NCBI GenBank assembly: GCA_963715985.1
Contig: CAVQSP010000014.1
Span: 512,001 to 576,000 of the forward strand
Origin: an uncultured Thermoleophilia bacterium
Lineage (GTDB): Bacteria; Actinomycetota; Thermoleophilia; UBA2241
DNA: 64,000 nt
Reading direction: 5' to 3'
Part shown: one piece after another, positions 11,674 through 28,716 of the stretch
How the letters are laid out: each line of letters begins with the position of its first letter
Position numbering within the stretch: position 1 is the first letter of the stretch
Notes under the pieces: model-generated
Told to the model about the DNA's origin: nothing
Seen by the model: the letters and a program-made list of their open reading frames with translations, nothing else
The model's database searches: none
Position numbers and translations under genes: made by a program

Positions 11674-11717
11674 CGGCGCTCGCGAGGCTCGCACTCGGGT
11701 ACGACCGACCAGGAGTG

Positions 11718-11754
11718 CCGGGGGCCTCACGACGCTGCGTCGTGAGGCCCCCGG
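11718..11754. terminator. Long GC hairpin after the second binding-protein gene
   Basis: CCGGGGGCCTCACGACGC-T-GCGTCGTGAGGCCCCCGG. Confidence 0.5.
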
Positions 11755-11829
11755 GCGTCGCATGCCGGGGCGTCGTGGCGGCGCCCACAGTCGCCGGGTC
11801 AGCCCGGCCGGCAGGAGAGGACCGCTGAG

Positions 11830-12279
11830 ATGGCAGAAGGCAAGTACGACAAGTACGTGATCGATGACCCCAAGCTCGTCACGGAGCTTGCCCACCACGA
11901 CTTCACCGACGTGTCGGGCATCACCTTCCCGGACGAGGTCTTCATCGACAGGGACCTCGCCGGCGAGTCGAACCAGTGGCTCGACATCATGTGGATCTGG
12001 GACGAGCCGACCCCGCCGGACCTGCTCGGCGCTCACGTGCATCCATTCGACGAGATCGTGCTGCTGATCGGCTCGAACGCGCGCGATACGAAGGACTTCG
12101 GCGGCTCGCAGATCGACTGGTGGATGGGCGAGGGCGACGAGGCCGAGTACTTCCGCATCGAGAGGACGACAGCCATCTACGTGCCCAAGGGTCTTGTGCA
12201 TGGCCCCATGAAGTTCCCGCGGATCGTCGCGCCGGTGCTCAACGTGGTCATCGGGCTGAACAGCGGGGACTACGCCTGA
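11830..12279 (+). CDS. Uncharacterised cupin-fold protein
   Basis: Cupin motif 1 'AHVHPFDE' and motif 2 'IYVPKGLVHGP'; GAGAGGA RBS. Confidence 0.75.
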   Translation: MAEGKYDKYVIDDPKLVTELAHHDFTDVSGITFPDEVFIDRDLAGESNQWLDIMWIWDEPTPPDLLGAHVHPFDEIVLLIGSNARDTKDFGGSQIDWWMGEGDEAEYFRIERTTAIYVPKGLVHGPMKFPRIVAPVLNVVIGLNSGDYA

Positions 12280-12349
12280 CGGGTGGCTGGGGCCGGGACC
12301 TGAGAGGTCGTGGCGGCCCTGGGCGAAGCGCCCCGCGGTCGCCGCGACC

Positions 12350-12968
12350 GCGCGACTACGAGAAGCTGGCCTCCGCGTGGGACCGCTACCACAGGGACTT
12401 CCTCCCCGATGTGCAGGCGGACCCTCTGCTGCCCGGACGCCCCTTCGACCTCCTGGGCGGCCGCTTCCTCAGCTGGCCGGGGCACGGGGTGGAAGACGAT
12501 ACCCCGTGGCAGTACGTCGAGGCAGAGTACATGAAGGCGGAGGACTACGACGCCTTGATCGCCGACCCTTCAGGCTACTTCATGCGGTCCCTCCTGCCGC
12601 GCATCGCCGAGGGCTTCGAGCCGTTCGCCGGCCTCGACCCGTTCACGGACTTCCTCGAGGCGGTGAACCTGCCGTTCAACATCATCCCGTTCGCGGAGCC
12701 GGGCTTCCTCGAGGGGATGAAGAGGCTCGCGGCGGCCGCGACGGCGGCCGTCGAGTATCTCGAAGCGGTCACGGCCATGGGCGCCCGCGTCACGGCTCGC
12801 CTCGGCCTGCCGACGCTCACCTCCGGGATGGTCAAGGCGCCCTATGACATCCTTGCCGACACCCTGAGGGGCACACGGGGCATCGCCACGGACCGCTACC
12901 GGCGGCCCCACGAATGCGGTGGCGGGCGGCTCCCCTCGCGGCTGGGGGAGCCGCCCGCCACCGTGTAG
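12350..12968 (+). pseudogene. Internal fragment of a uroporphyrinogen decarboxylase / cobamide methyltransferase family gene
   Basis: 'SWPGHG...QYVEAEYMKAEDYDALIADPS...APYDILADTLRGTRGIATDRYRRP'; no clear start, and the C-terminal half is missing. Confidence 0.65.
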
Positions 12969-12973
12969 TCGGG

Positions 12974-15584
12974 TCAGACCTGCCGTGCGTCCGGCAGCCG
13001 CTCCACCTCGATGAGGCAGGTGTTGCACGCCATGCCCGGCGAGGTGGGCGTGATGAAGCGCTTGGACGTGAGCATGTTGATGCAGCCGGCGAGGTCGGGG
13101 GAGTGGCCCGGCTCGCCGGACGGCCGGTAGTCGGCGCACGACTCGTAGGAGTGCGCCGTGCCCGGCCGCACGCGCTCGGTGACGTACGCGGCGAGGATCA
13201 CCTCGCCGCGCTCGTTGAAGGCGCGCACGAGGTCGCCGTGGGCGACGCCGCGCGCCTCCGCGTCCTCCGTGCTGAGGCGGATGATCCAGTAGCGCCGGCC
13301 GTCGTCCTTGAGCAGGCGGTGCTCCTCGATGTCGTCGGCCCACCCGTCTTTGCCGTCCCCGTGCGTGTGGAAGCTGAAGCGCGGGTGGGGCGAGAGGAGC
13401 TGCAGCGGGAAGCGCTCTGTGAGGTGCGTGGTGTGGTGCCCCTCCCAGCTCTCGATGTACTGCGGGCCCATGGCGGGGCGCTCCTCGTCCACCACGTCGC
13501 CGGAGGCGTAGAAGCGGGTGAGGCTGGAGCTGACGAACTCGATCTTGCCGGTGGTGGTCTGCAGGCCCTTGCCGCCGACCGTGTCCCACGGCGGCGGGCC
13601 CCAGTCGGGCGTGTCCCGCTTGCGGTCCTCGGCGAACCAGCGCAGCGCCGGCGTGTACGGCTTGTCCTCGGGCACGGGCACCACGTAGTAGCCCTTCTCG
13701 CGGAAGTCGTCCCACGAGATGTGCTGCGGCATGTCGCTGGCGTCGAAGATGCGCTTGACCCAGTCCAGCTCGGTCATGCCGCCGTCGGTGTAGATGTCGC
13801 CGATGCCCATCTTCGCCAGCGAGCAGGGCGAAGATCTCGTAGTCGGACCTGGACTCGCCGAGCGGCTCCACGCACTTCTGCTGCAGGACGATGATGCGGT
13901 GGTTCACCTGCTCGAACTTGTGCGTGCCGTAGCCGGAGGCGTGCGCCCAGTCACCGATGTCCCAGCGCTCGAAGTTGGTGCAGGCGGGCAGCACGATGTC
14001 GGCGAAGCGCGTCTCGCCCTCCATCCAGATGGACTGGTTCACGACGAAGGGGATCTCGCCCTCGCGGTAGGCGGTCACGTAGCGGTTGGTCTCGGTCATG
14101 GTGCCGAAGAAGGAACCACCGTACCGGTAGTACATCTCCACGTGCGGGTAGCCCGGCGCCGGGTACTTGTACTCGGGGAACTGCGCCTCGATGGACGAGC
14201 CGCAGAAGCCTTTGCCGTTCCAGCGCAGCTCTTCGTGCCGCATGGCCTCCGGGATGCGCAGGCGCGGCACGGTCTGCCCCTCGGTGGAGTGCTGCGGGTT
14301 GCTGATGAAGCCGCCGTCCGGCCACATGCGGCTGGCCAGCTTCTTGCCCGCGGCCGTGCCGGCGACGTCGCCGGAGATGCCGCCCTCGGCGTAGCCGGGG
14401 AAGAAGAAGTCGGCGTCGAACGGCACGCCGCTGGTGGTGGACCAGAGGTTGCTGCCCGGCTTGCCGAGGCCCTGCATGGCGACGAGGGCGATCATGGCGC
14501 GCGCCCACTCGTTGCCGCTGGAGGCGCGGCAGGCGCCGCCCCAGCCGCCCTGGCCGCCCGCGGCGAGCATGGTCTTCCTGCGGCCCCAGCGGCGGGCCAG
14601 GGCGCGGATCTGGCGGGCGGGGACGCCCGACTCCTCCTCGGCCCAGGCGGGCGTCTTGGGCAGCCCGTCGCTCTCGCCGAGCACGTACGCCTTCCACTCG
14701 TCGAACCCGTGCGTGTGCGTGGCCACGTACTCCGTGTCGTAGGTGCCCTCGGTGAGCCAGGTGTGGGCGATGGCGAGGGCCAGCGCCACGTCGGTGCCCA
14801 GGCGCGGCGCCAGCCACTTGCCGCCTATCAGGGCCGCCGTGTGGTTGTGGTAGGGGTCGATGAACACCATCTCCACGCCGAGCTGCTTGAGCCAGTCGCG
14901 GCGGGAGGTGCTCTCGAAGGAGGCGTAGACGCCGCCGGTGGTCTCGGGGTCCGATGACCAGAACACCATCATCTCGGTGTGCTTGAGCGCGTCCTCGAGG
15001 AGGTCGTACTGCTCGGGGATGCCGAGGCGGTGGCTGAAGCCCCACATGTGGGCGCCGCCCCACTGCCAGCCCTCCCAGCTGTCCGGGTTGTGCTCGCCGT
15101 AGGTGTAACCGACCAGGTTCATGAAGCGGTTGTAGGCGCTGAAGCGGTAGCCGACGTTGCCCCACAGGTGGTGCGAGCCGGGGGTCGTGAGCATGCCCGC
15201 CGGACCGACCTCGCGCTTGATGCGCACGATCTCGGCGGCCACGATGTCGAGGGCCTCGTCCCAGCTGATGGGCTCGTAGCCGGACTCGCCGCGCTTGTGC
15301 GTGTTGCGCGCCCCGTCGGGGTCGAAGTCGACCCGCTTGAGGGGCGTGAGGATGCGCGAGGGCGAGTAGATGGTGGCGCGGTGCGCCACGGTCCACGGGG
15401 AGAGCGTGGTCTTGCGCGGGGGCGAGAACGAGCGCCCGCGCGCCTCGATCTTCCACGAGGGCGCATCGTCGTCGTCGAGCTGCAGAGGGATGATGCGCTG
15501 GATGCGTCCGCCGGCCACGTCGACGTGGACGGGGCCGCCGGTGGTGAGGCTGGTCAGTCGCCTGACGGGCTGCGTGGCGTGCAT
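12974..15584 (-). CDS. athL: Pyrogallol-phloroglucinol transhydroxylase alpha-subunit homolog (Mo-bisPGD); frameshift near 13816
   Basis: 'TGGPVHVDV', 'SHHLWGNVGYR', Ser-ligand motif 'NPDSWEGW', 'FPGYAEGGISGD', 'GLQTTTGKIEF', 'SPHPRFSFH'; no Tat signal and no N-terminal FeS motif. Confidence 0.88.
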
Positions 15585-15804
15585 GCTCGGGTCACCGTCC
15601 GTGTGGGTTGGATGCAGTCGGAGTCTACCGGAACGGGCGGTCCGTTGCACGGTACGGAGCGCAGCCCCAGCCTCGGGAGAGCCGCCCGCGCGGGCCCGTG
15701 TCAGGGCTGTGACCGCGGCCGCGAAGAGGCCGGCCCGCGGCGCCTGAGACGGCGGCGCCGCGGGCCGGCCGGGGGTCAGCCGTGACGATCGCGCAGGCCG
15801 GCGC

Positions 15805-18012
15805 TCAGGCCTTTCCGTAGGTCGGCACGGTGCCGTAGTTCTCGCGTGTGGAACACCTCGTCCTGCATGTCCTCGTCGGCGGCCTTGTAGACCTTGCAGA
15901 TGAGGCAGGTCATGTCGGGCGACCCGTACATGGGGTCGAGGTGGTCGTTGCTGGTCAGCACGTTGGGGTTCGAGATGAACACACCGTGGTACCCCTTGGC
16001 CGGCTCCTCCGGATAGAACCAGTTGGCGGTGCACATGATCATGTCCTTCTTGATGCCCGCGAAGGCGTGCAGCTTCTGGCGGATGCGGCCGCGCTGCGTC
16101 TCGATCCAGATGATGTCGCCGTCCTCCACACCGTACTTCTCGCAGGTCTCCGGGTGCATCTGGCACTGCGGGAACTCCATGTAGCTGCGCAGCCAGGGGA
16201 TGTTGCGGTACTGGCCGAGGAAGTAGAAGGGCTGGCGGAAGCCGGTGCTCAGGAGGAGCGGGTACTCCTTGAACAGCTCCGGCGTGCTGACCGGGCTCTC
16301 GCCCGGCTCGCGGAACACCGGCAGCGGGTCGTACCCGAGCGACTCGAGGTGGTTCGACTTGAACTCGAACTTCTTGCTCGGGGTGGGGAACCCGCCACCC
16401 TCGTGCCAGTAGTCGGTCTTGTACTTGTAGTACACCTGGTCGGGCCCCATGCAGCCGCTGATGAGGTTCTTGCTGAAGTCCTTCCAGGTCATGGTGCCGT
16501 TCATGCCCTTGCGGACCTGGTAGTCGAGCAGCGAGGGGACGTCCTCGAACCACTTGTCGGGCACGACGCGCTTGCCGACCTCGTTGAAGATCCAGGCGTC
16601 GGCCTTGCGCCTCGCCGGGCGGGTCGATGACCTTGTTGTGCGCCTCGATCATGAACCGCGGGTGCATGTCGTACACGTCGTCGAGCTCGAGCCAGTGGGC
16701 GGCCGGCAGCACGATGTCGGCCGCCTCCGCCATCGGCCCCATGAAGAGGTCGGTGTGCGACATGAACTCGACCTTCTCGATGGCCGCGACGACCTCTTTG
16801 GTGTTGGCCATGTGCACGATCTGCTGCCCGCCGACGCTGAACCAGACCTTGACCGGGCTCTTGCCGTCGTTGATGGCCTTGACCATCGTGTCGGGATTGC
16901 ACGTGCGGGCGGCGCCCATCTTGTACGTGTCGCCGCCGATGATCTTGCTCGCCATCTCCGGGGTGATCGGCAGCTCCAGGAAGAAGTCCTCGATGAGGCC
17001 GGTCTCCGGCAGGACCCAGGTGATCATGCTGCCCGGCCGCTCGATGTTGCCCGCCAAGCCCATGAGGCAGGTGATGGCGCGCAGCGTGTGGCCGCAGTTG
17101 GCCTGGCGCTCGAGGGAGCTGCCGACCTGGATGCAGCCCGGCGTGTCGACGGCCCACATCTCGGCTGCCGTCGTCACGTGCTCCTTGGGGATCCAGCAGA
17201 TGTCGGAGACCTTCTCCGGAGTGAAGTCCTTGACGCGCTCGCGGAGCTCGTCGAACCCGAACGTCCAGTCCTCGACGAACTCCTTGTCCCAGAGCTCCTG
17301 CTCGATGATGTGGTTCATCATCCCCATGGCCAGGGCGCAGTCGGTGCCCACGCGCGGCTGGATCCAGAGCGAGGCCCGCGAGGCATACGCCGTGGCTCGC
17401 GGGTCGATGATGATGAGGTTCTTGCAGTAGTCGAGCGAGTTGATGAACCAGTAGGCCATCTCGGAGTCGGCGCTGCTGATCTCCAGCTGCTTGGCCCACA
17501 TGATCTGGGTCTTGGGGAACTCGCCGCCCCAACCGTGGTAGTCGCAGTACAGGCGGCCGTAGCCCGTCACGAGGCCGTAGAGCCCGAGCCGCGGGCTGTG
17601 ACACACGTAGCCGGGCGTGATGGCGTTGCCTGTGCCGAGCGAGCGCGCCATCTTCATGGTGTAGCGGTTATAGCCGCGGCCCGGTGCCCTGTGAGATGGC
17701 GATGGTGTGCGGGCCCGGGTCGGCGATCGCCGCCTTCATCTTCTCGGCGATCGTGTCGAGCGCCTCGTCCCAGCTGATGCGCTCCCACTTGCCCTCGCCC
17801 TTCTTGCCGACCTGCTTCATCGGGTGCTTGATGCGATACGGGTTGTCGATGTGCTGGATGCTCGAGAGGCCCTTGGAGCACATCGTGCCGTTGGTGGTCG
17901 AGTCCGGATTGCCTTGGATGTGGACGATCACGCCGTCTTCGACGGTGACGATGACGCCGCAGCCGCCGTGACAGCTCTTGCACGTCGTGAGGATCTGCTT
18001 GCGCTCAGCCAT
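15805..18012 (-). CDS. Mo/W-bisPGD oxidoreductase catalytic subunit, acetylene hydratase / catechol dehydroxylase-related; frameshifts near 17680, 16610 and 15840
   Basis: FS0 motif 'CKSCHGGC...C', probable Cys ligand in 'GYVC', 'ADIVLPAAHWLE', 'TPSKKFEF', 'GESPVSTPELFKEYPL'; no Tat signal. Confidence 0.82.
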
Positions 18013-18046
18013 TGTCTCCCTTTTCCGACAGGCCCGGAGGCCGGCC

Positions 18047-19024
18047 TCACGCGACCTTTGGAAGGACGGACCGGTAGATCCCGACCTTGAGGACGGAGTA
18101 CTTCAGGGCGAACGCCCCGATCGTGTGGCAGACGATCGCCACGACCAGCAGCGACTCGGTGCTTGTCGTCTCGCCCATGAACAGCGTCGCGAACGAGATG
18201 ACCAGCGGAGTGACGATGCCGAGGATCACGAGCAGGATCCAGAACACCCAGGCGGTGCTTCCCTTGATCAGGTCCTGCGCGGCGAGCTCGGCGGTCGAGT
18301 GCTTGCGGTAGGCGCGGACCAGGTAGCCGGCGATCAGCAGGGCGTTGACGATGAGGAGGATGCGGCTCCAGGACTCCAGTGTGTCGATGGCCACGTCCTT
18401 GCCTGTCATCAGGCTCACGCCCATGGTGAGGGCCAGACCGTCGGCGATGCCCATGATGACGAACACGATGGGCAGCAGGCCGGTGTTCCAGAAGGGGAGG
18501 CTCTTGCAGTAGCTCATGGCGAAGCCGCAGTACACGCCGGTGAGGACGATGAACACGCCGGCGACGATGCCGACGATCCAGGCGAGCACCGTGACGACGT
18601 CTGCAGCCGAGGCGCTGAGGTCGACCCAGTGCAGCAGGTACCACAGGACGATCTGCAGGAAGCCGGTGGCCGCGAACACGATCGAGAAGAACATCCCCCT
18701 GGCGAACCACGAGGTCTTCCAGGCCTTCGTGAACGGGGGGATCGCGCGCCAGAAGTTGCGCTTTCTGCCGAGGTACAGGAAGTGCAGCGGCAGCTTGAAG
18801 AGCATGATCAGCGCCCAGCCGAGCACGGTGGCCCACCAGGCGCCGGTGGTGATCCCCCAGATCCCGGCGATCAGGCCCACGAGGTACGTGCCCATGCCGA
18901 GCGCGGAGAAGACCTCGGCGAGCCACACGAGGATGCCCTTGCCGGAGATCCACTCCTTCTGGCGCATGGGCTTGACCATCCACTCGTGGGTGGTGATCCA
19001 CTGGCGGCGGGTCTGCGCCTTCAT
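18047..19024 (-). CDS. nrfD: NrfD/PsrC-family membrane anchor (quinone-interacting)
   Basis: About 8 hydrophobic segments; 'RQKEW', 'HFLYLGR', 'TSWFARG', 'YCGFAM...PFWN'. Confidence 0.82.
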   Translation of the reverse strand: MKAQTRRQWITTHEWMVKPMRQKEWISGKGILVWLAEVFSALGMGTYLVGLIAGIWGITTGAWWATVLGWALIMLFKLPLHFLYLGRKRNFWRAIPPFTKAWKTSWFARGMFFSIVFAATGFLQIVLWYLLHWVDLSASAADVVTVLAWIVGIVAGVFIVLTGVYCGFAMSYCKSLPFWNTGLLPIVFVIMGIADGLALTMGVSLMTGKDVAIDTLESWSRILLIVNALLIAGYLVRAYRKHSTAELAAQDLIKGSTAWVFWILLVILGIVTPLVISFATLFMGETTSTESLLVVAIVCHTIGAFALKYSVLKVGIYRSVLPKVA

Positions 19025-19812
19025 GACGTCACCTCCGCCTCATCCTTGTCGTGGCCGTGGATGCGCCGGTACGCGTCGCGGTCGACGGTGCTCAGGTGCT
19101 GGATGTGACTGCCCGTCTGCGCCTCACGCGGCGCGCTGTTGGACGGCGCACCGCCCAGCCTGTAGTCGATGTAGTACACCGAGGGATCGGTGGCGTACTC
19201 CGTGCGCAGCTGAAAGCCGATGCGGTCGCGGATGAGCCGCGAGACGTTGCTGTCCGGGTCGTCGAGATCGCCGAAGGTGAGAGCCCGCGCCTGGCACGTG
19301 TTGACGCACGCGGGGGTGGCGTCGCGGTCGATGCCGGGCCACAGCCCCTTGGACATCCCGTCGTCGATGCGCTCCGCGCAGAAGTTGCACTTCTCGGTGG
19401 TCCCCCGCTGGTGCGGGTAGAGCTCCTTGCCCTTCTTCTCGAAGCGGGTCTTCTCGTAGCCGGGGAAGTAGCCCGGGTCCTTGTCCTTGGAGAGGAAGGT
19501 GCGGTTCTGGTATGGGCAGGCGATCACGCAGTACCGGCAGCCGATGCATTTGTTCGAGTCGATGACGACGATGCCGTCCTCGCGCTGGTGCGACGCCTCC
19601 GTGGGGCACACGTGCACGCACGGGGCATCGGCACACTGGTTGCAGCGCACCGGGTACGTGCTGACGTCCACGGCGCCGTCCTCGTCCACCTCATAGGCGA
19701 TGAGCTTGACCCAGGTGATGTGAAGCGGCAGGAAGTGCTCGATCCTGCAGGCGGCGACGCAGGCGTGGCAGCGCATGCACTTCGCCAGGTTGATGACCAT
19801 TCCCCATCTCAT
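19021..19812 (-). CDS. NrfC/DmsB-type four-cluster Fe-S subunit
   Basis: CMRCHACVAAC, CNQCADAPCVHVCP, CIGCRYCVIACPY, KCNFC...PACVNTC. Confidence 0.9.
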   Translation of the reverse strand: MRWGMVINLAKCMRCHACVAACRIEHFLPLHITWVKLIAYEVDEDGAVDVSTYPVRCNQCADAPCVHVCPTEASHQREDGIVVIDSNKCIGCRYCVIACPYQNRTFLSKDKDPGYFPGYEKTRFEKKGKELYPHQRGTTEKCNFCAERIDDGMSKGLWPGIDRDATPACVNTCQARALTFGDLDDPDSNVSRLIRDRIGFQLRTEYATDPSVYYIDYRLGGAPSNSAPREAQTGSHIQHLSTVDRDAYRRIHGHDKDEAEVTS

Positions 19813-19876
19813 CGGCGTTCTCCTGTTCGCCGGCGGACTGGTCCCGCGTCAGGGGGCGCGACGGCGACGCGGTCTC

Positions 19877-20693
19877 CTATCGCGCAAGGGGGATGTCTCC
19901 CAGGCTCACGTCGTTCTCGGTGCTGACTTCGCGGCTGGCGCGGCGCGAACCCCTCCGCGCTGATGGTGAGCGCGTACGTGCCCTCCTCGAGCCCGGTGAT
20001 CCAGAAGTCGCCGAACGCGTCGGTCGCGACGGTGACGGCCTCGCCGCCCCCGGCGGGGGTCGCGGTGCACACGGCGCCGGTCACGACCTCCTTCTCGACC
20101 GGGTCGTACACCGTGCCGGCGATGAACCTCTTCGGCACGTTGAGGTAGTAGACGCGTGGCTTCGTGCCGAGCTCCGGCTTCCTGACCTCGGCCTTGGCGA
20201 TGAGCTCGGCGAACTCGCTCTCCTCGCCGAACTTGAGCGCTGCGGTCGGGCACGAGTCGACGCAGCGCGGCACGTCCCACTCACCGCTGTCCAGCAGGTG
20301 CGCACAGCCGGTGCACTTCTGCGCCAGGTTGAGGTCGTCGTTGAAGTAGATGGAGCCGTACGGGCAGGAGTCGACGCAGGCCTTGCAGCCGGTGCAGAGG
20401 TCGGTGTCGATGATGACGAGGCCGTCGTCGCGCTTGTACATCGCGCCTTCCACCTTGCAGGACGCCATGCAGGGCGCGTCGTCGCAGTGGTTGCAGTGGT
20501 TGGCGACGTAGTGCATGCGCACCTGGGGCACCTGGCCGCAGATGTACTCGTCCACGCGCATCCAGAACTGGCCGCTGTCCGGCTGGGGCTTGGCGATGGG
20601 AGCCCAGTCGTTGCCGACGTGCTCGTCCTTGCAGGCGAACTGGCAGCCGAAGCAGCCGTTGCAGACGCCGACGTCTACGATGAATGCCTTCAT
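19877..20693 (-). CDS. Transhydroxylase beta-subunit-like Fe-S protein with C-terminal beta-sandwich; frameshift near 19945
   Basis: 'CNGCFGCQFACKDEHVGNDW...QPDSGQFWM', 'KCTGCAHLLD...PRCVDSCPT', 'TDAFGDFW'. Confidence 0.85.
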
Positions 20694-20695
20694 GG

Positions 20696-23327
20696 TCAGC
20701 TGTTACCTCCCTCGACCACCCAGCCGTTGAAGCGCAGACCGGCGCCGGGGTCGTATTCTCTCTCGAAGGCCTCGGGGTACTCCGAGCGCCAGTGCTCCCA
20801 CTCCTCGGGCTTGATCTTCTGCACGTCCGCGAGGTAGCCGCTGGTGGCCTGGCCGCAGGCGTTCTTGGATGTCAGACCGTGCGGGGCGATGGTGTTGATG
20901 GCGCCGCCGCGGTCGACCTTGCCGGGGATGATGGGGTCGTGCCGGGCGCCGTGGTCGATGTAGGCCACGCCCGCCATCATGCGCTCCCACACGCAGGCGC
21001 CGGCGAGCACGATGCCGCGCTCGTTGAAGATCTTGACGATCTCGCCGTGCTTGATGCCGCGCGCTTCCGCGTCCACCGGGTTCAGCCACACAGGCTCGTA
21101 GTTGTAGTTGTCCGGGCCGAGGACCTTGCCGGTCGGCGTCTCACGCGCCCACGTGCAGTCGTCGCCCTGGGCGTGCGTCCGCCAGCGGGGGTGGTTCGAC
21201 ATGAGGATGAGCGGGAACATGTCGGCGCGCTCGCTGGAGAGCCGCTCGTCGTGCGTGATGCCCTTCTCGATCCACTTGGGGATGCCGGGGCGCTCCCTGT
21301 CGTCGGGGAAGTGCGTGGCGAGCCGCTCGGAGTAGAACTCCAGCAGGCCCGACGGGGTCTTGAGCGGATGGTTCTCGGGGTCCTCGTAGAACTCACGCAG
21401 GCCCGGAGGATCCTGCTCCCAGTCCTCTGCGGTCGGGAAGACGCAGTACTGCTTCTCCTTGAACTCGTCCCAGGTCATGTACCGATCGACGTGCATGCAC
21501 TCGTAGATCTCCTTCTCGAGATCCTCGATCGTCTTGCCCTTGGTGACCTGCTCCGTCATGCCCAGCTTCTCGGCGACCGCAAGCACGATCTCGTAGTCGC
21601 TCTTGGATTCGCCGACCGGCTCGATCGCCTTCTCCTGCAGCATGCAGGTCTGGTACGGCGGTCCCTGCCGGACGTTGGTGAGGACGTCCTCGACCTCCAT
21701 CGTCGTGTTCGCCGGCAGGATGACGTCGGCGTACAGGCAGTCGTTCTCCAGCCACGGATGCTGCGCGACGCAGAACTCGATGCTCTCATCGCGGTGCGCC
21801 TCGATGGTCCAGTTGCCGTGGTTCCAGCAGGTGATGCGGCAGGGCGTGTCGGTCCAGATCATGTGGAGCCTGGTGCCGCCTTCTTCCGGCGGGTTCGGGA
21901 ACTGGTAGTCGATGAACTGGTCCTCCGTCTCGGCGTTCTGCGCGCCGGTGCCGGAGAAGTGGATGGTCTCGCTGTTGAGGATGGCCTCCTGGATCAGCGT
22001 CTTGGGGATGTTCTGCGTGCCCCAGGCGTCGACGCTGCTCTGCACGGGGATGCGCAGGCCGTGGCTGAGGGAGGGGTTGAAGTAGCGGAAGTTCTCCAGA
22101 GACTCGGCGCGAGGCATGCCGAAGTACGAGAACTGCCACTGGTGCACGCCGGGGCCGCCGAGGCCCTGCATGCCGAGCAGGATGCACTCGAGGCGGCCGG
22201 GCTCGTGCGAGTAGGGGCCGCGGACCATGGAGCCGCCGAAGTAGTGCAGGATCGAGGTGCACTGCTTGGCGAACTCGCGTGCGAGCGCCTTGATCGTCCA
22301 CTCGGGGATGGCGGTCTTCTTGGAGGCCCACTCCGGCGTCTTGGGGATGCCGTCCTCCTCGCCGAGCACGTAGGCGGCGACCTTGTCCATGCCGACGGCG
22401 TGGGTGGCCACGTAGTCCTTGTCCCACGTGTCCTCCTTGAGCCACACGTGGATGATCGCGAGCTGCAGCGCGGCGTCGGTGTTGGGGAGGATGGGGATCC
22501 ACTTGTCGGCGTGGACGGCAGCACCGAAGTTGAGCTCGGGGCAGATGTAGATCTGCTTGATCCCGACCTTGGTGAAGAAGTAGCTGATGTTGGTCGCGTT
22601 CTGCCCGGTGAAGCCCCACGGCGTGGTCTCGTCGTCGCAGCCCCACTTGAGCACCATGTCGCAGTGCTCGACGACGTCCTTCAGGACGTTCAGCTGGGGC
22701 GCCATCATGCCCTGGAAGCCGTGGCCCCAGACGTGCTTGGAGCCCCAGTACCAGCCCTCCCAGCTGTCCGGCTGGCGGACCTGCAGGGTGAAGCCGCCCA
22801 TCTCGTCGAGCAGGCGGGCGCTGTGGCCGTGCGGGGTGTGGATGGTCTTGCTCTCGCCGTGGCCGTCGCCCTGGACGAGGATCGCCGCCGGGCCCGTACT
22901 GCTTGTGGATCCGTGCGATCTCCTTGGCGATGATGTCCGTCGCCTCGTCCCAGGAGATGCGCACGTACTTGCTCTTGCCGCGGTTCTGCGGGTTGCGCTC
23001 GCCGTCGGGGTCCCAGTCGACGCGCTTGAGCGGGTATTTGACGCGGTTGGGTGAGTACGTGCGCTTCTTGTAGGCGGTCATGTAGGGCGCCGGGCGCGAC
23101 CGCATGCCCGGTTCCAGGGTCTCGCCGTTGCGCTCCAGCTTCCAGGGGCGGAAGCTCTCACCGTCGTACTTCCAGTCGAACTGGAACGGCCGGATGCGCA
23201 CGATCTTGCCGTCCTTGACGTCCACCATGACCTCGCCGGTGCCGCCGAGGAGGCCGCCCTGCGACAAGGCCCTGATGACGGTCTTGTCCGGGGTCACGTC
23301 GACCTTCTTGCGCTCTCTGTCTGTCAT
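20696..23327 (-). CDS. Divergent transhydroxylase-family Mo enzyme alpha subunit; frameshift near 22890
   Basis: 'YPLKRVDWDPDGERNPQNRGKSKYVRISWDEA', 'QGDGHGESK' in place of SHH, 'QPDSWEGWYWG', 'SNHPRWRTHAQGDD'. Confidence 0.82.
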
Positions 23328-23376: not shown

Positions 23377-24234
23377 TCAATCAGGTGACACGGAAGACGG
23401 CCGGGATGGGTTCCAGCCGAGGTAGGCGGAGAGCGAGGCGGCCGCGCTCTTGACGGCGCGCGTGCAGAGCTCGCGTTCGTCGGGGCCGAAGCGCCCGGTG
23501 GGCATGACCACGGACATCGCGGCGACAACGTTGCCGAGCTGGTCGCGGACGGGCGCGCCGACCGCACAGATGCTGGGGAAGAGCCCCTCCACGTCGTAGG
23601 CCACGTCGTCCTCGACGACGCGGTCGAGCTCGTTCGCGAGCGCCTCGGGGTCGGTGACCGTATACGGCGTGTGCCGGCGCCGCGCCTGTGCCAGCACTTC
23701 GGCGCGCTTCTCCGGCGGAGCGAAGGCGGTGAAGATCTTGCCGTGCACGGAAGCGAGGTCGCCGATGATGCGCCCCGGGGCGACGTCGCGCTTGAAGGGT
23801 CGTGCGGAGTCGATGTTGGCAACACTCACGGGCGTGCCGTCCACCGGCACCGCCAGAGTGACCGACTCGCCGGTCTCATCGAGAAGCTGCTGCAGGAACG
23901 GGCGCGCGTGCTCCACGAACTCGGAGTAGTCCTCGACCACGTAGGCCATGGCGATGGTGGCGGGGCCGAGGTGGTACTGGTTGGTCGTGGTGTCGCGGAC
24001 CAGGAACTCTGCGGCCTCCAGCGTGCGGACCATGCGATACACGGTCATGCGCAGGAGGCCGGTGCGGGCGGCCATCTCGTCGATGGTCCACTCACGACGG
24101 TCCACGTCGAACAGCGAGAGGATAGAGAGGCCGCGCGCGAGAGCGCGCACGGTGAGCGGGTCGGTCTCGGCCGGTCTGTCGTGCACGCCGCCGGCCTGAC
24201 CGCCATCGCGAGCCTGTGCTGCGGTGGTCGTCAT
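23377..24234 (-). CDS. IclR family regulator, paralog of 305-1177
   Basis: 'VRALARGLSILSLF...RMTVYRMVRTL...YHLGP', 'ASVHGK', 'ICAVGAPVRD'. Confidence 0.9.
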   Translation of the reverse strand: MTTTAAQARDGGQAGGVHDRPAETDPLTVRALARGLSILSLFDVDRREWTIDEMAARTGLLRMTVYRMVRTLEAAEFLVRDTTTNQYHLGPATIAMAYVVEDYSEFVEHARPFLQQLLDETGESVTLAVPVDGTPVSVANIDSARPFKRDVAPGRIIGDLASVHGKIFTAFAPPEKRAEVLAQARRRHTPYTVTDPEALANELDRVVEDDVAYDVEGLFPSICAVGAPVRDQLGNVVAAMSVVMPTGRFGPDERELCTRAVKSAAASLSAYLGWNPSRPSSVSPD

Positions 24235-24288
24235 GCCATCCCCCTTGTCGGACCCCGATGCCTCTTGCCTGGCGCCGTTGCACAGGAG

Positions 24289-24336
24289 TACGATATTCGC
24301 GTTGCTATCAGACGATATCAGCGTTTTGACGATATG
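24289..24336. promoter_or_regulatory. Divergent control region with three ACGATAT half-sites
   Basis: tACGATATt, gACGATATc and gACGATATg between iclR and the third Mo enzyme; same half-site as 1193. Confidence 0.45.
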
Positions 24337-24418
24337 CAAGGTGTCTGGTCGTTCGGCGTCGCCCGGCGGGGGTCATGGCCGCGGCAGCGCTCCACGGGAG
24401 CCGGTGGGAGGTCGCCCA

Positions 24419-26947
24419 ATGAGTGAACAGGTCTTCACCAATCTGACGAACTGCGGGCCGGTGTCCGTGTACGTCAGGGACGGGGTGGTCACACGGATCC
24501 TGCCGCTCGTGGCGGACGAGGCCGACTTCCGGCCCTGGACGATCGAGGCGGGGGGCAAGCAGTACTCCCCGCCGAAGAAGTTCAACCTGGCGCCGATGGT
24601 GCACGCCGAGCGTCGGCGCCTCTATTCGGACGAGCGCATCAAGTACCCGATGAAGCGCGTCGACTTCGACCCGAACGGCGAGCGTAACCCCCAGAACCGC
24701 GGCAAGTCGGCGTACGAGCGCATCTCCTGGGACGAGGCGCTCGACATCGTCTCGGGGGAGATCGCGCGCGTGAAGAACGAGTACGGCAGCTCGGCCATCA
24801 GCGGCATGACCTCGTCGCATCACAACTGGGGCATCGTCGGCTACAAGATGGGCCCGTTCATGCGCTTCATGAACTGCCTCGAGGCCACCCCGGTCTTCGA
24901 CAACCCGGACAGCTGGGAGGGGTGGCACTGGGGCGCCACGCACACCTACGGCTTCTACTGGCGCCTTGGCATGCCCGAGCCGTTCGACAATCTGCAGGAC
25001 GTGCTCAAGAACTCCGAGATGATCGTCCTCTGGTCGAACGACCCCGATACCACGCGCGGCACCTACTCGGGCCAGGAGTCGGCCATCTGGCGCACGTGGC
25101 TCAAGGAGAAGGGCGTCCCCACAGTCTTCATCGATCCCTTCCACAACTACACGAACGCGCTCTTCGACGAGGGCAAGTGGATCGCCCCGCGTATGGGCAC
25201 CGACACGGCGCTGGCGATGGCGATCGCCTACGTGTGGATCACCGAGGACACGTACGACAAGGAGTACGTCGCCGACCGCACCATCGGCTTCGACGAGTTC
25301 AAGCCGTACGTGCTCGGCGAGACGGACGGCGTGCCCAAGACGCCGGAGTGGGCGGCCGAGGAGTCCGGCGTCGAGGCGCGCGTCATCCGCACGCTGGCGC
25401 GGGAGTGGGCCGGCAAGCGCACCGCCCTCGCGGCCGGCGCGCGGGGCGGCGAGGGCAGCGCGTGCCGGACCGCCTACGGCACCGAGTGGGCGCGGATGAT
25501 GGTGCTCCTCCAGGCCATGCAGGGTCTGGGCAAGCCGGGCATCACCATCGGCGGGATCTCGATGGGCGCTCCGGCGGACTTCGAGACCTGGTTCCCGGCC
25601 TACGCCGAGCCGCAGGGGCGCATGTCCCACTCGACGAAGGCGGCCGACTACATCCCGAAGAACTCCACGAAGCAGAGGCTGTGGCGGCTCACGGTGCCGG
25701 ACGCCATCCTGGATCCTCCCGTGGAGTGGGACGGCGCCGGCTTCTGCGGGCAGTCGCTCGAGCAGCAGTTCGAGCACTTCGTGTATCCGGCCGAGGGCTG
25801 CTCCGAGATCAAGCTCTGGTACCGCTACGGCGGCTCCTTCATGGGCACCATGTCCGACACCACCAAGTGGGTGCGCATGTACCAGAGCCCCAAGCTCGAG
25901 TTCGTCGTCAACCAGGACGTGTGGTTCAACAGCGAGACGCGTATGGCCGACGTCATCTTGCCGGCCTGCAGCAACTTCGAGCGCGACGACCTCGGCGAGT
26001 TCGCCGCCTGCGGCGGCTACACCACGAACTCGCACTCGGGCAACAACTACCGCGTCATCGTGCGTGAGCAGAAGTGCATCGAGCCCCTCTGGGAGTCCAA
26101 GTCCGACTACCAGATCCTCGCTGCCCTTTCCGAGCGGCTCGGCATCTACGACGAGTTCACGGACGGCGGCAAGACCGAGATCGACTGGGCCAAGGCGTTC
26201 TACGACTGCTCCGACCTGGCCAAGGTGCTCGACTGGGAGACCTTCGACAAGAAGGGCTACCACATCATCAACGCCCCCGAGGACTACGAGCCCAAGCCGT
26301 GCCTGCGCTGGTTCGCGGAGGGCCGCGCCTGCGACACGCCCGACACCGGCAACCCGAAGCGCGGCACCGACAAGGCGCACGAGCTCGGCACCTACAGCGG
26401 CAAGATCGAGTTCTCGTCCGAGAGCCTCAAGGCTCACTTCCCGGACGACCAGGAGCGGCCTGTCTCTCCCCGGTACATCGAGAGCTGGGAGGGCCATCAC
26501 ACGACCGAGCTCATCGAGAAGTACCCGCTGCAGCTCATGTCGCCGCATCCGCGCTTCTCGTTCCACTGCCACTACGACAAGCACACCGACTGGCTCGACG
26601 ACATCCCCGTCCACCGCATCAAGAAGGACGGCTACGCGTGGTGGCCGGTGCGCATGAGCCCGGCGGACGCGGACGCGCGCGGCATCCGCAACGGCGACAT
26701 CGTGCGCCTGTACAACGACCGCGCGTCCGTGCTCTGCTGCGCGGTCGTCACCGAGCGGATCCGCCCGGGCATCGTGCACAGCTACGCGTCGTCGGCCAAG
26801 TACGACCCGCTCGAGCCCGGCAAGGCCGACTCGGTCGACAAGGGCGGGTGCGTGAACATGCTGACGCCGTCGCGGATGGTCAGCCGGCACGCCCCGGGCA
26901 TGACGCCCAACTCGTGTCTCATCGACATCGCGAAGTGGGAGGGCTGA
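24419..26947 (+). CDS. athL: Third transhydroxylase-family Mo enzyme alpha subunit (intact ORF)
   Basis: 'TNCGPVSVYV', 'SSHHNWGIVGYK', 'DNPDSWEGWHWG', 'FPAYAEP', 'FAACGGY', 'SPHPRFSFH'; GGGAGG RBS. Confidence 0.87.
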   Translation: MSEQVFTNLTNCGPVSVYVRDGVVTRILPLVADEADFRPWTIEAGGKQYSPPKKFNLAPMVHAERRRLYSDERIKYPMKRVDFDPNGERNPQNRGKSAYERISWDEALDIVSGEIARVKNEYGSSAISGMTSSHHNWGIVGYKMGPFMRFMNCLEATPVFDNPDSWEGWHWGATHTYGFYWRLGMPEPFDNLQDVLKNSEMIVLWSNDPDTTRGTYSGQESAIWRTWLKEKGVPTVFIDPFHNYTNALFDEGKWIAPRMGTDTALAMAIAYVWITEDTYDKEYVADRTIGFDEFKPYVLGETDGVPKTPEWAAEESGVEARVIRTLAREWAGKRTALAAGARGGEGSACRTAYGTEWARMMVLLQAMQGLGKPGITIGGISMGAPADFETWFPAYAEPQGRMSHSTKAADYIPKNSTKQRLWRLTVPDAILDPPVEWDGAGFCGQSLEQQFEHFVYPAEGCSEIKLWYRYGGSFMGTMSDTTKWVRMYQSPKLEFVVNQDVWFNSETRMADVILPACSNFERDDLGEFAACGGYTTNSHSGNNYRVIVREQKCIEPLWESKSDYQILAALSERLGIYDEFTDGGKTEIDWAKAFYDCSDLAKVLDWETFDKKGYHIINAPEDYEPKPCLRWFAEGRACDTPDTGNPKRGTDKAHELGTYSGKIEFSSESLKAHFPDDQERPVSPRYIESWEGHHTTELIEKYPLQLMSPHPRFSFHCHYDKHTDWLDDIPVHRIKKDGYAWWPVRMSPADADARGIRNGDIVRLYNDRASVLCCAVVTERIRPGIVHSYASSAKYDPLEPGKADSVDKGGCVNMLTPSRMVSRHAPGMTPNSCLIDIAKWEG

Positions 26948-26951
26948 TCAG

Positions 26952-27780
26952 ATGCGCCTCGGCATGCTCATAGACGTCACCAGGTGCAGCGGCTGCCACA
27001 ACTGCTTCCTGGCCTGTCGTGACGAACACTACGGCAACGAGTACCCCGGCTACTCCGCGGCCCAGCCCCTGAACGGCCAGTTCTGGATGCAGGTCAGGGA
27101 GGTCGAGGGCGGCAAGTACCCGCGGCCCCGGCTCAACTACATCGCCATCCCCTGCCAGCACTGCCGGAACGCGCCGTGCCTCGACGCCGCCAAGGACGGC
27201 GCGGTGTATCGCCGCGAGGACGGGATCGTGATGATCGATCCCGAGAAGGCGAAGGGGCAGGACCAGATCGTGGCCTCCTGCCCCTACCGCGTCATCTACT
27301 GGAACGCCGAGCTGGAACTGCCGCAGAAGTGCGGCCTCTGCGCCCAGCGTCTCGACAGCCGGCGACAGGCAGCCGCGTTGCGTGGAGTCGTGCCCGACGG
27401 GTGCGATGGCGTACGGCGACCTCGACGATCCCGGGTCCGAGATCGCCAAGCGCCTCGAGGAAGTCTCGTCCGAGGTCCTGCATCCCGAGTACGGGACGGA
27501 TCCTCTGGTGACCTACGCCGGCCTCCCGGGCCGCATGGTCGCCGGCGAGGTCGTGCTCGAGGGCAGCGACGTCTGCGCCGAGGGCGTCAAGGTCACGCTC
27601 CAGGGCGACGGGGTCTCCCTGGAGACGGCGTCGAGGACGTTCGGCGACTTCGCCTTCGAGCGCCTGCCGCAGAGCAAGGCGTTCACGGTCACCGTCGCCG
27701 CCGACGGCTTCACGCCGCAGGTGTTCGACGTGAAGACGCACACCGACGTCGATCTCGGCGAGGTCGTGCTGACGAAGTAA
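26952..27780 (+). CDS. bthL: Transhydroxylase beta subunit homolog; frameshift near 27360
   Basis: 'CSGCHNCFLACRDEH...SAAQP...QFWM', 'CQHCRNAPC', 'DPEKAKGQDQIVASCPYRVIYWN', 'FGDFAFE'. Confidence 0.85.
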
Positions 27781-27862: not shown

Positions 27863-28594
27863 TCAGGTGGCGCTCGCGCCCAGCCCCGAAGCCTCGAGGG
27901 CGCGGGTCATCAGCTGCCGGACCCTGCACACGTGCGACACGGCGGCAGCGGCGGCGCGCCCGGGGTCCTGCTCGCGGATCGCGGCCACGATCTGCTCGTG
28001 CGTGGCGAAGACGTCGTCCTCGGAGCTGTCGAGGAGCTCTTCGTCCACGGGCAGGAAGAGGTCGGCGCGCACCGCGTTCATGGCCAGCGCCAGACGCGAG
28101 CTGTGGGCGGCGCGGGCGATGCTGCGGTGGATGCCGGCATCCGCCTGGAAGAGCGAGGCGCGGCGGCGGTTGTCGCGCTCCTCGGCGAGGGCGCGCTCGA
28201 TGTCGTCGAGCTCTGCCTCCGTGCGGCGCTCCGCGGCCAGCTCGGCGAGCCGGCTCTCGATGGTGATGCGGAACTCGAAGATGTCGTCGAGCTCGCGGCG
28301 GTGCAGGGCCATCCACTGGTCCCAGCACTTCTGCAGAGCCTGCACGTCGCTCACACGCGAGCCGCCGTGGGCGCCGCGCGTGGTCACGAGGTAGCCGGTG
28401 CTCTCCAGCGACTTGAGCGCAAGGCGGAGGGTGACGCGTGAGATCCCCAGGCGCGCGGCCAGTTCGGTGGCAGGGGGGAGGCGGTCGCCCGGGCCCAGCT
28501 CGCCCCAGAAGATGAGGGCGCGCACGTAGCGCTCGGCGCTCTCGCTGGCCGTGCCGGGGGTGAGAGACATGTCGTCGAAGCTCTGTTCGCTCAT
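27863..28594 (-). CDS. GntR/FadR family regulator (FCD domain)
   Basis: 'LGPGDRLPPATELAARLGISRVTLRLAL...RGAHGGS', 'EFRITIE', 'ADAGIHRSIA', 'HEQIVAAI'. Confidence 0.9.
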   Translation of the reverse strand: MSEQSFDDMSLTPGTASESAERYVRALIFWGELGPGDRLPPATELAARLGISRVTLRLALKSLESTGYLVTTRGAHGGSRVSDVQALQKCWDQWMALHRRELDDIFEFRITIESRLAELAAERRTEAELDDIERALAEERDNRRRASLFQADAGIHRSIARAAHSSRLALAMNAVRADLFLPVDEELLDSSEDDVFATHEQIVAAIREQDPGRAAAAAVSHVCRVRQLMTRALEASGLGASAT

Positions 28595-28634
28595 GCCACC
28601 GAGTCCGTTCGTGTACGGCGTGATTGTAGCAGGC

Positions 28635-28670
28635 TTGACATGAATATCTAAATGGCTACCATCTATACAA
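28635..28670 (+). promoter_or_regulatory. Promoter TTGACA-N16-TACCAT with FadR-like near-palindrome AAATGGCTACCATCT
   Basis: AT-rich divergent intergenic region between gntR and the ACD-ior operon. Confidence 0.55.
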
Positions 28671-28716
28671 TTCAACGGGATCCCGGCAGCCCGCCGGGGT
28701 GATGAGAGGAGCCGCG

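Follow-up and report, generated by a model that had tools for sequence, protein, structure and literature searches.

What reaction would call for two different molybdenum enzymes beside one set of electron-transfer genes? The question is raised by a 64,000-nucleotide stretch of DNA from an uncultured Thermoleophilia bacterium (assembly GCA_963715985.1, contig CAVQSP010000014.1, positions 512,001 to 576,000), called the window here. Five genes follow one another on its minus strand: AthL1, which resembles the large subunit of pyrogallol-phloroglucinol transhydroxylase; BthL1, its beta subunit; an NrfC-like iron-sulfur (Fe-S) protein; an NrfD-family membrane protein; and MoX, an acetylene-hydratase-like molybdenum subunit. 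An earlier note on this DNA, made from the letters alone, had proposed this order, and translations and Pfam matches bear it out. Judged from sequence, the probable task of the cluster is to shift the hydroxyl groups of plant polyphenols, or to take them off, with no need for oxygen.

The way tannins and flavonoids are degraded anaerobically holds back or allows the loss of carbon from wet soils and peat, the subject of the 'enzyme latch' debate (PMC10470551, in the parts consulted). The characterised anaerobic enzymes that shuffle hydroxyl groups are, in the sections of the literature consulted, only the soluble transhydroxylase, resorcinol hydroxylase and the gut catechol dehydroxylases. The cluster in the window would add a third architecture, cytoplasm-facing and quinone-anchored, that is genetically tied to a distinct clade of transhydroxylase relatives. 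Our literature search found no description of an NrfC-NrfD-MoX module in the sections consulted.

A three-gene unit facing the cytoplasm

One genome per species was scanned for a pattern built on an invariant stretch of MoX, YCDYHGW, which is specific enough for the purpose; the stretch is found at about residues 150-165 of MoX (about 17560-17520 in the window) and falls where the alignment with acetylene hydratase has a gap. The scan gave 351 pattern matches and 226 confirmed relatives, of which the best 80 loci were kept (numbered with an L below), all of them titled as metagenome-assembled genomes (MAGs). Every locus was found through MoX, and all synteny reported here is conditional on the presence of MoX. 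The loci are labelled Actinomycetota (38), Chloroflexota (15), Thermodesulfobacteriota (13), Pseudomonadota (4), Acidobacteriota (4) and Myxococcota (2), with 4 unassigned.

All 76 loci that have at least 1.9 kb upstream of MoX carry NrfC directly upstream and on the strand of MoX, and NrfD is directly upstream of MoX in 75 of 78, the exceptions being L024, where the hits are split, and L062 and L063. Because this order is kept so widely, NrfC-NrfD-MoX is the unit, and NrfC-NrfD belongs to MoX. The earlier note had reasoned that a membrane anchor beside a transhydroxylase relative implies net electron exchange with quinones. A quinone-linked unit survives this result, as NrfC-NrfD with MoX; that the anchor serves the transhydroxylase-like enzyme does not follow from it, since the order of NrfC and NrfD is tied to MoX. 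A complex prediction of NrfC and NrfD with BthL1 as the partner reached a best score of 0.27 against a mark of 0.32, which speaks neither for nor against binding.

The side of the membrane was approached through NrfD. The eight hydrophobic segments of the window protein leave 23 lysine and arginine residues on the side of the termini and 1 on the other, and in all 19 orthologues the N-terminal side carries 13-21 and the opposite side 0-3. By the positive-inside rule, NrfD is predicted to be N-in/C-in, with its long loops and both termini in the cytoplasm. No twin-arginine motif was found at or upstream of the starts of AthL1, BthL1, NrfC and MoX. The earlier statement that neither catalytic subunit carries a Tat (twin-arginine translocation) signal is thus upheld, and both Fe-S subunits likewise lack export signals. 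The N-terminus of MoX is short and invariant in 19 of 19 sequences. The open reading frames of NrfC orthologues measure 253-268 aa in 64 of 69 loci; the remaining five measure 221-279 aa or, in L037, are a read-through artefact, and the longest NrfC frames in five low-GC loci span 253-280 aa. The translation of NrfC holds four cysteine motifs, whose cysteines are invariant in 19 of 19 orthologues.

Because the termini and loops of NrfD are predicted to lie inside and neither partner has an export signal, NrfC and MoX would have to be cytoplasmic, and it is highly probable that the module faces the cytoplasm and is linked to quinones. SoeA and bacterial SreA appear in Table 1 of PMC10100899 as examples of such a build that face the cytoplasm. 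From sequence and gene order, the module would be a three-subunit enzyme with molybdenum or tungsten bound to bis-molybdopterin guanine dinucleotide (bis-MGD), built like polysulfide reductase but turned towards the cytoplasm. Electrons would run between the catalytic site and single [4Fe-4S] cluster of MoX, the four clusters of NrfC and a quinone/quinol site of NrfD in the membrane.

The two loci without NrfD come from different assemblies. In both, NrfC is followed directly by MoX (about 9150-12200, with a gap of 66 nt in L063) and MoX by AthL1, with BthL1 next in L063. In L062 and L063 the system may be soluble.

MoX belongs to a discrete family

MoX was compared with known enzymes through P0003, an intact homologue of 734 aa. 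P0003 scores 281 bits against acetylene hydratase (2e7z_A), 174 against the FdhF of a hydrogen-dependent CO2 reductase, 165 against FdhH, 146 against thiosulfate/polysulfide reductase and 102 against ArrA. The earlier note had related MoX to acetylene hydratase, and as far as bit scores go (281 against 102-174) the placement is sound.

The residue pattern in that note, namely the motif CKSCHGGC, a histidine where acetylene hydratase has its aspartate and a cysteine at the metal-ligand position, reappears in the HMMER alignment. The motif occupies MoX residues 11-18, and C11, C14 and C18, together with C137, align with cysteines of acetylene hydratase. His15 stands opposite Asp13 of acetylene hydratase and is invariant in 19 of 19 family members. 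Cys137 stands opposite Cys141 of acetylene hydratase and residue 140 of FdhH, the metal-ligand position, and the pair Cys137-His138 aligns with FdhH residues 140-141, while the position of FdhH Arg333 is a leucine in MoX. Asp13 has a role in hydration by acetylene hydratase. Because His15 replaces Asp13 and a leucine replaces Arg333, MoX is, by sequence, neither a hydratase of known type nor a formate dehydrogenase. The latter had been considered because of the Cys-His pair and a JGI label, 'selenocysteine-containing dehydrogenase', and was rejected on the leucine at Arg333 and on scores below that of acetylene hydratase.

How far does the family extend? A word-indexed search with the middle fragment of MoX gave 749 matches at E <= 1e-3 among 2835 candidates, and the best 120 of these 749 are 69-97% identical to the fragment and carry generic names only. 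When representatives at 50% identity were searched exhaustively, 16961 matched at E <= 1e-3; among them the closest full-length representative outside the listed MoX family members is 52% identical and the next at most 41%. In a FastTree phylogeny of 91 rows, all 12 rows of the MoX family fall together in a single clade with a long stem (SH-like support 100). The C-x2-C-x3-C motif is present in 97 of the 135 representatives of at least 600 aa, 33 of the 97 have a histidine after the second cysteine, and 10 of the 135 have a Tat-like motif. MoX itself is 68-97% identical across phyla. The MoX family is discrete and very conserved, and has no functional name in the sources consulted.

AthL1-BthL1 is a distinct branch of transhydroxylase relatives

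The window holds three transhydroxylase-like large subunits, AthL1, AthL2 and AthL3, a layout that also occurs in the Thermoleophilia loci L001, L007, L009, L014, L015 and L037. Against the solved large subunit 4v4c_A, an intact AthL1 orthologue in L009 scores 436 bits, and AthL2, aligned across residues 7-843, scores 878.9 bits. Fifty-eight large subunits, taken from the window or from less than 10 kb around MoX and so a biased sample, were placed in a tree with FastTree only. In it the 37 rows of the AthL1 type form a clade of their own (SH-like support 100), and the paralogues that resemble transhydroxylase more closely fall outside it. The AthL1 clade holds all nine copies upstream of MoX and 22 of the 28 that come immediately downstream; the six left over are Thermoleophilia genes of the AthL3 type and lie within the transhydroxylase-like clade (19 rows). 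Relatives of AthL1 that are 65-93% identical occur across many MAGs with no functional name, and one of them shares its MAG name with locus L079 and lies on a different contig.

With the numbering of the solved enzyme transferred through the alignment to 4v4c_A, the AthL1 clade keeps H144, D174, S175 and W176 in 36 of 37 rows. The rest of the pocket is altered: Y404 is leucine in 33 of 37 rows, R153 is proline in 32 and threonine in 4, H145 is glycine, and Y152 is threonine or alanine. The AthL2 clade keeps H144, D174, S175 and Y404 and has lysine for R153; AthL3 keeps H144, R153, D174, S175 and Y404 and lies within the transhydroxylase-like clade. H145 and Y152, changed in the AthL1 clade, are also retained in the clades of AthL2 and AthL3. 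Tyr404 and Arg153 are, we assume, on the cosubstrate side of the solved transhydroxylase.

The beta subunits differ as well. BthL1 has 16 cysteines in four motifs, invariant in 19 of 19 orthologues, whereas the solved beta subunit 4v4c_B, which it matches with 189.5 bits, is without the fourth cysteine of motif 2 and three cysteines of motif 3; by eye, the same cysteines are absent from BthL2. Because a full four-cluster wire comes together with an altered pocket, the sequences suggest that AthL1-BthL1 is not an ordinary transhydroxylase and that it exchanges electrons on balance. AthL1-BthL1 would then hydroxylate with water and a net redox change, and not act as a redox-neutral transferase.

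The AthL1 type is also linked to the module. At a threshold of at least 55% identity over at least 300 aa, AthL1-type genes adjoin NrfC-NrfD-MoX in 33 of the 80 loci. Nine copies are upstream, all in Thermoleophilia or Actinomycetes, and 24 are downstream (23 on the same strand and one on the opposite), in Thermodesulfobacteriota, Acidobacteriota, Pseudomonadota, SAR324 and others. No AthL1-type gene was scored in the 19 truncated loci. The picture in the earlier note of two molybdenum enzymes flanking one NrfC/NrfD module therefore describes the window but not the general layout: it is peculiar to Thermoleophilia, and elsewhere AthL1-BthL1 is downstream of MoX or not within 10 kb. The Desulfatiglans-type loci L041, L042 and L050 have two tandem AthL1-BthL1 pairs after MoX, drawn from two sub-clades.

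Probable assembly indels in the window

The earlier note does not mention frameshifts, and its description has to be corrected: three of the five genes, AthL1, BthL1 and MoX, are frameshifted as assembled. The indels were located against the Thermoleophilia loci L007, L009 and L037, which are 84-88% identical in DNA to the window over the cluster. AthL1 has one extra base near 22883, which leaves pieces at 23327..22884 and 22882..20699. BthL1 has two one-base gaps near 19950, with the frame shifting between about 19953 and 19933, and its open reading frame as assembled reads on to 19812. MoX has two extra bases, near 17680 and 16610, and is spread over three frames that are collinear with P0003; its stop codon is 15776-15778, not 15805. 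AthL3 has one extra base, with a frameshift near 13812-13832, and BthL2 changes frame where two frames join at 27359/27361.

Every break is a single base when compared with the three relatives, and lies inside DNA that is otherwise 86-97% identical. The broken pieces are 86-97% identical in protein to intact homologues and contain no in-frame stops. Signs of further frame breaks appear elsewhere in the window, at about 8050, 28700-32755, 49001-52199 and 44807-46586. They take the form of clipped Pfam coverage of a LivM-like permease, overlapping frames with high third-position G+C, a CoA-ligase piece that runs in frame into an indolepyruvate-oxidoreductase-like gene, and an FAD_binding_4/CCG oxidase split into three pieces. 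Breaks of this kind in unrelated genes suggest an assembly-wide indel problem.

The frameshifts might instead be real and the genes pseudogenes in a cluster that is decaying in its source organism, and the number of breaks speaks for this: four genes (those within 15779-23327 plus AthL3) hold five indel sites, and BthL2 holds a further one. Decay is nevertheless very improbable, given pieces that match intact homologues so closely and contain no stops, and given breaks that are all single-base, are suggested in unrelated genes too and fit consensus errors of an assembly. The single-base form of the breaks, the high protein identity without stops and the similar breaks elsewhere make assembly indels the most likely explanation.

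Gene assignments and polyphenol neighbourhood

Coordinates are collected in Table 1. The G+C content of the window is 65-72%, and open frames were weighed by their third-position G+C together with family matches. A Pfam scan of 12 translated pieces returned the expected families in 12 of 12 (E 1e-7 to 1e-33). Among 11 window pieces compared with NCBIfam, none reached a curated cut-off; NrfC came nearest, matching the DsrO model with 182.6 bits where 200 are required.

Table 1. Features of the window, with the matches on which each assignment is based.
Feature	Position	Strand	Basis and remarks
AthL3, transhydroxylase-like large subunit after MoX, without its own beta gene	12977..15584	-	Pfam Molydop_binding on C-terminal piece
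MoX, acetylene-hydratase-like bis-MGD catalytic subunit	15779..18012	-	Pfam Molybdop_Fe4S4, Molybdopterin, Molydop_binding; top solved relative 2e7z_A
NrfD-family integral membrane subunit, 8 predicted helices	18050..19024	-	Pfam NrfD 3.4e-16
NrfC/DsrO-like 4Fe-4S protein, four [4Fe-4S] motifs	19024..19812	-	Pfam Fer4 families
BthL1, beta subunit	19877..20693	-	Pfam Fer4_11 3.2e-26, CarboxypepD_reg 3.5e-14 (C-terminal domain)
AthL1, divergent relative of pyrogallol-phloroglucinol transhydroxylase large subunit	20699..23327	-	Pfam AhtL-like_1st, Molybdopterin, Molydop_binding; top solved relative 4v4c_A (pyrogallol hydroxytransferase large subunit), 8.5e-95
IclR-family regulator	23380..24339	-	Pfam IclR_C 2.6e-29, HTH_IclR 1.8e-10; directly upstream of AthL1, same strand
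AthL2, close relative of solved transhydroxylase large subunit, divergently transcribed, intact	24419..26944	+	Pfam; start codon; 4v4c_A
BthL2, beta partner of AthL2, three-cluster type	26952..27780	+	Pfam Fer4_11; CarboxypepD_reg on second frame
Ferredoxin and FAD-binding reductase pair	41148-42898		
PhlG-family (2,4-diacetylphloroglucinol (DAPG)/phloretin-hydrolase) domain genes, three	43231-44055, 44807-45769, 46549-47499		
Chalcone-isomerase N-domain gene	44059-44868		
EthD gene	45438-46586		

The characterised phloroglucinol pathway consists of PGR (an SDR protein), DPGC (a cyclase), TfD (3HCDH-like) and TAL (a BKACE protein), as described in the consulted parts of PMC10470551. All four of these Pfam families occur beside MoX, and they were never seen together in one locus. 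Among the 80 loci, SDR genes are near MoX in 28, genes of the 3-hydroxyacyl-CoA-dehydrogenase-like (3HCDH) type in 22 and BKACE genes in 17; indolepyruvate-type oxidoreductase gamma subunits are near it in 18, the thiamine pyrophosphate (TPP) subunits in 16 and ADP-forming CoA ligases in 14. An aminotransferase, alanine dehydrogenase, aldehyde oxidoreductase and MoaF module is present in 11-17 loci. These neighbours are all in Actinomycetota, except for six SDR genes, a single TPP-oxidoreductase gene and a single CoA-ligase gene. An IclR cluster is present in 29 of 80 loci, again all Actinomycetota.

Two arrangements recall parts of the pathway. An SDR-BKACE-3HCDH trio occurs in Actinomycetes loci, and an SDR gene with two cyclases occurs in L055, L061, L062 and L063; L037 has two cyclases and an SDR gene, and L065 an edge fragment. 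L063 carries on one strand IclR, SDR, cyclase, cyclase, NrfC, MoX, AthL1, BthL1 and a TRAP transporter, with NrfD absent.

The window itself has a flavonoid-type gene set at 41148-47499. In the sections consulted of PMC10470551, chalcone isomerase and phloretin hydrolase belong to the flavonoid route to phloroglucinol. Few of the loci have genes of this kind within 10 kb of MoX: chalcone-isomerase-like genes occur in 2 of 80 loci (in L012 at 4.4 kb from MoX), the FAD reductase in 4 and PhlG in none. In catechin-amended peat, annotated catechol dehydroxylase genes were highly expressed, and FCR, PHY, PGR and transhydroxylase genes were expressed too (PMC12203004, in the parts consulted). The earlier note had placed the cluster in a catecholic polyphenol setting. 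The surroundings do contain genes of polyphenol and phloroglucinol families, and they point to tri- and tetrahydroxybenzenes that feed phloroglucinol at least as strongly as to 3,4-dihydroxyphenylacetate (DOPAC), hydrocaffeate or catechin.

Several other gene sets lie near MoX. In Actinomycetes the module beside NrfC-NrfD-MoX comprises a class-III aminotransferase, alanine dehydrogenase, aldehyde:ferredoxin oxidoreductase, MoaF, a TetR regulator and a LIV-type ABC transporter (L010, L011, L016, L018, L019, L022, L031, L076 and others), and its substrate is perhaps an amine; the window keeps the aminotransferase and MoaF of this module at 1232-3574. At 27866-33378 the window has genes for a GntR regulator, for ADP-forming acyl-CoA synthetase and for the alpha and gamma parts of an indolepyruvate-type 2-oxoacid:ferredoxin oxidoreductase, and in Actinomycetota the same set is less than 10 kb from MoX in L003, L004, L012, L017, L020, L022-L024, L030, L035, L064 and L076. 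In the Chloroflexota loci L068, L073, L075 and L080 (about 12100-16800), a UbiA prenyltransferase and a UbiE-like methyltransferase follow MoX. A cytochrome-b561/FdnI-like membrane protein comes directly after MoX in L073, L075 and L080, a radical-SAM gene is present in L068 and L075, and L073 has an FmdE-like gene and a group-3-like NiFe hydrogenase upstream.

Proposed roles and alternatives

Taken together, we are led to suspect that AthL1 hydroxylates, that MoX reductively dehydroxylates, and that the two feed phloroglucinol with the quinone pool as buffer or sink. This is the favoured reading, proposed tentatively from sequence and given somewhat less than an even chance. Its parts are of unequal standing: a phenolic substrate for MoX is slightly more probable than the opposite, reductive dehydroxylation by MoX is plausible while falling a little short of even, and direct electronic coupling of the AthL1-BthL1 and MoX enzymes is doubtful.

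Tetrahydroxybenzene chemistry stands behind the proposed steps, in which two enzymes would act on one pool of polyhydroxybenzenes. AthL1 would hydroxylate pyrogallol or hydroxyhydroquinone to 1,2,3,5-tetrahydroxybenzene, with the release of two electrons, and MoX would take up two electrons and remove the hydroxyl that is flanked by two others, which would give phloroglucinol. The electrons would travel between the Fe-S subunits directly, or via the menaquinone pool through NrfD; in a variant, the menaquinone pool would be the net donor and dehydroxylation would become an electron sink. Phloroglucinol would then enter the reductase/cyclohydrolase/lyase pathway, whose gene families are represented nearby in several lineages.

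The most tightly coupled form of this scheme, a 'split transhydroxylase', is an unlikely one. One molybdenum site would add a hydroxyl from water and the other would remove a neighbouring one, while two electrons pass via eight Fe-S clusters and NrfD ties this wire to the menaquinone pool; the pair might run redox-neutral, or with dehydroxylation as a respiratory sink. In the neutral mode, pyrogallol or hydroxyhydroquinone might be converted to phloroglucinol without a supplied tetrahydroxybenzene cosubstrate, and the strictly neutral, soluble form would be the one in L062 and L063. Were this so, a widespread and so far unrecognised route would lead from plant polyphenols to the phloroglucinol pathway where soils, peat and sediments are anoxic.

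Several points weigh against the favoured reading. All of its chemistry rests on family resemblance and gene neighbourhood, and the identity of MoX across phyla fits a housekeeping-type respiratory substrate equally well. The trees are FastTree only, the linkage of AthL1 was seen only in loci chosen by MoX, and the roles given to Tyr404 and Arg153 are presumed ones. At the threshold used, no AthL1-type gene was scored within 10 kb of MoX in 28 of the 80 loci, all with at least 9 kb on both sides (five show a partial AthL1/BthL1 match at the edge). Dehalococcoidales/Chloroflexia loci carry only cytochrome-b-like, UbiA and methyltransferase genes after MoX, and because only such respiratory or quinone-type genes are found there, MoX can do without an AthL1 gene beside it, and its substrate may be of a more general kind. 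No cyclase gene accompanies the SDR-BKACE-3HCDH trio in the five loci screened (L012, L017, L024, L028 and L035), and no NCBIfam model named the neighbouring SDR, BKACE, 3HCDH and cyclase genes as phloroglucinol enzymes, the matches being generic or sub-threshold only. BKACE/3HCDH pairs also serve other pathways.

The loci without a scored AthL1 gene speak for the version that the earlier note had put forward, in which NrfC-NrfD-MoX is a stand-alone terminal reductase that dehydroxylates DOPAC, hydrocaffeate and catechin-type compounds with menaquinol, and AthL1-BthL1 is a pathway neighbour only. The acetylene-hydratase-like family and residue pattern agree with it, as do the PhlG-family hydrolases, chalcone-isomerase-like gene and FAD reductases of the window, the chalcone-isomerase-like gene of L012, and the quinone-type biosynthesis genes and cytochrome b that Dehalococcoidales loci add. 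Gut catechol dehydroxylases support growth as the route to electron acceptors (PMC7028382, in part), and the peat expression data (PMC12203004, in part) point the same way. It leaves unexplained, however, why AthL1-clade genes are linked to the module in 33 loci whatever the gene order, and why NrfD-less loci exist; flavonoid genes of the kinds it calls on are close to MoX in few loci (2 of 80 and 0 of 80), and the known dehydroxylases are Tat-exported or soluble two-subunit enzymes, not cytoplasm-facing anchored ones, in the sections consulted of PMC11887054 and PMC7028382. We regard this version as improbable. MoX might also work in the opposite direction, as an enzyme that hydroxylates or dehydrogenates a phenolic with water and sends the electrons via NrfC-NrfD to quinones, a resorcinol-hydroxylase-like function in another family of molybdenum enzymes. 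A cytoplasm-facing, quinone-linked build is that of the sulfite-oxidising SoeABC, and resorcinol hydroxylase is a precedent for anaerobic, water-dependent ring hydroxylation with net release of electrons (both in PMC10100899 Table 1); MoX also adjoins genes of phloroglucinol-consuming families. Yet the only redox-active characterised relatives reported for this branch, in the consulted parts of PMC7028382, are reductive dehydroxylases, and AthL1-BthL1 is already hydroxylase-like, so that two oxidative enzymes would leave the NrfD-less loci without an electron acceptor. This direction is quite unlikely.

A little further down the scale, and with small probability, NrfC-NrfD-MoX might act on a small inorganic or generic substrate such as a sulfur, selenium or arsenic species, with the polyphenol genes nearby being incidental or regulatory. 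Its PsrABC-like architecture and the sub-threshold DsrO match of NrfC would suit such a role, as would the extreme conservation across seven phylum labels and the Chloroflexota loci with respiratory-type neighbours only. MoX scores far lower, though, against thiosulfate/polysulfide reductase and ArrA than against acetylene hydratase, and it has no Tat signal, whereas the catalytic subunits of Psr, Phs, Ttr and Arr are entered as periplasmic in PMC10100899 Table 1. The linkage to AthL1 in two gene orders and the L063 cluster that runs from SDR and cyclases to AthL1 are further points against it.

Under the favoured reading, MoX would be quinone-linked and act on polyhydroxybenzenes, AthL1-BthL1 would supply a net-redox hydroxylation, and NrfD would couple their joint yield of phloroglucinol to the quinone pool. 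The module is a cloneable candidate for polyphenol processing or respiration by uncultured Thermoleophilia, Acidobacteriota, Desulfobacterota and Dehalococcoidales, and it is a marker gene set for metatranscriptomes of polyphenol-amended soils.

Comparison with known systems

AthL1-BthL1 shares with the transhydroxylase AthL/BthL (4v4c) the AhtL-like first domain (PF21423), Ser175, His144/Asp174 and a CarboxypepD_reg-like C-terminal domain of the beta subunit. It differs in the modest score of AthL1, in the loss of Tyr404 and Arg153, and in the cysteines for a fourth cluster in BthL1, where the solved beta subunit has three clusters. AthL2-BthL2, unlike AthL1-BthL1, is a close full-length homologue of 4v4c. 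A functional model for AthL1-BthL1 may be the resorcinol hydroxylase RhLS of Aromatoleum anaerobium, a cytoplasmic transhydroxylase relative with a serine ligand that carries out net oxidative, water-dependent ring hydroxylation (PMC10100899 Table 1); the likeness is proposed from its description. The parts of the literature consulted mention no acetylene-hydratase-like partner enzyme for RhLS.

Acetylene hydratase and MoX have in common the N-terminal cysteine cluster motif and the cysteine at the metal-ligand position. MoX differs in its histidine for Asp13, in the YCDYHGW insertion and in its obligate NrfC and NrfD gene partners. Acetylene hydratase is a stand-alone, non-redox enzyme that is not known to have electron-transfer partners. 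It is listed as a cytoplasmic hydratase in the sections consulted of PMC10100899.

In its architecture the module is closest to complexes from other branches. With SoeABC-type complexes it shares a molybdenum subunit, an Fe-S subunit, an NrfD-type anchor and a cytoplasmic active site (PMC10100899 Table 1), but MoX, at about 735 aa, comes from another, acetylene-hydratase-like branch of the family. With the PsrABC type it shares adjacent genes for a catalytic, a four-cluster and an NrfD subunit, but MoX and NrfC have no Tat motif for export.

The gut catechol dehydroxylases are bis-MGD enzymes reported to be nearest to acetylene hydratase (PMC7028382, in part). Compared by description only, they share with MoX the bis-MGD cofactor and an Fe-S partner, and dehydroxylation as an electron sink is theirs; MoX, by contrast, is a tight, separate clade linked to transhydroxylase relatives. 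In the consulted parts of PMC7028382 and PMC11887054, the Eggerthella type (Dadh/Hcdh/Cadh) has a Tat signal, an Fe-S subunit and a membrane subunit, and the MoX module has the Fe-S and anchor genes but not the Tat motif. The Gordonibacter type (Dodh) is described, in the sections consulted of PMC11887054, as two cytoplasmic subunits with no anchor; MoX is predicted to be cytoplasmic too, but has NrfD beside it in nearly all loci. Because the described forms are an exported three-subunit enzyme and a soluble two-subunit enzyme, a module that is both cytoplasmic and anchored matches neither.

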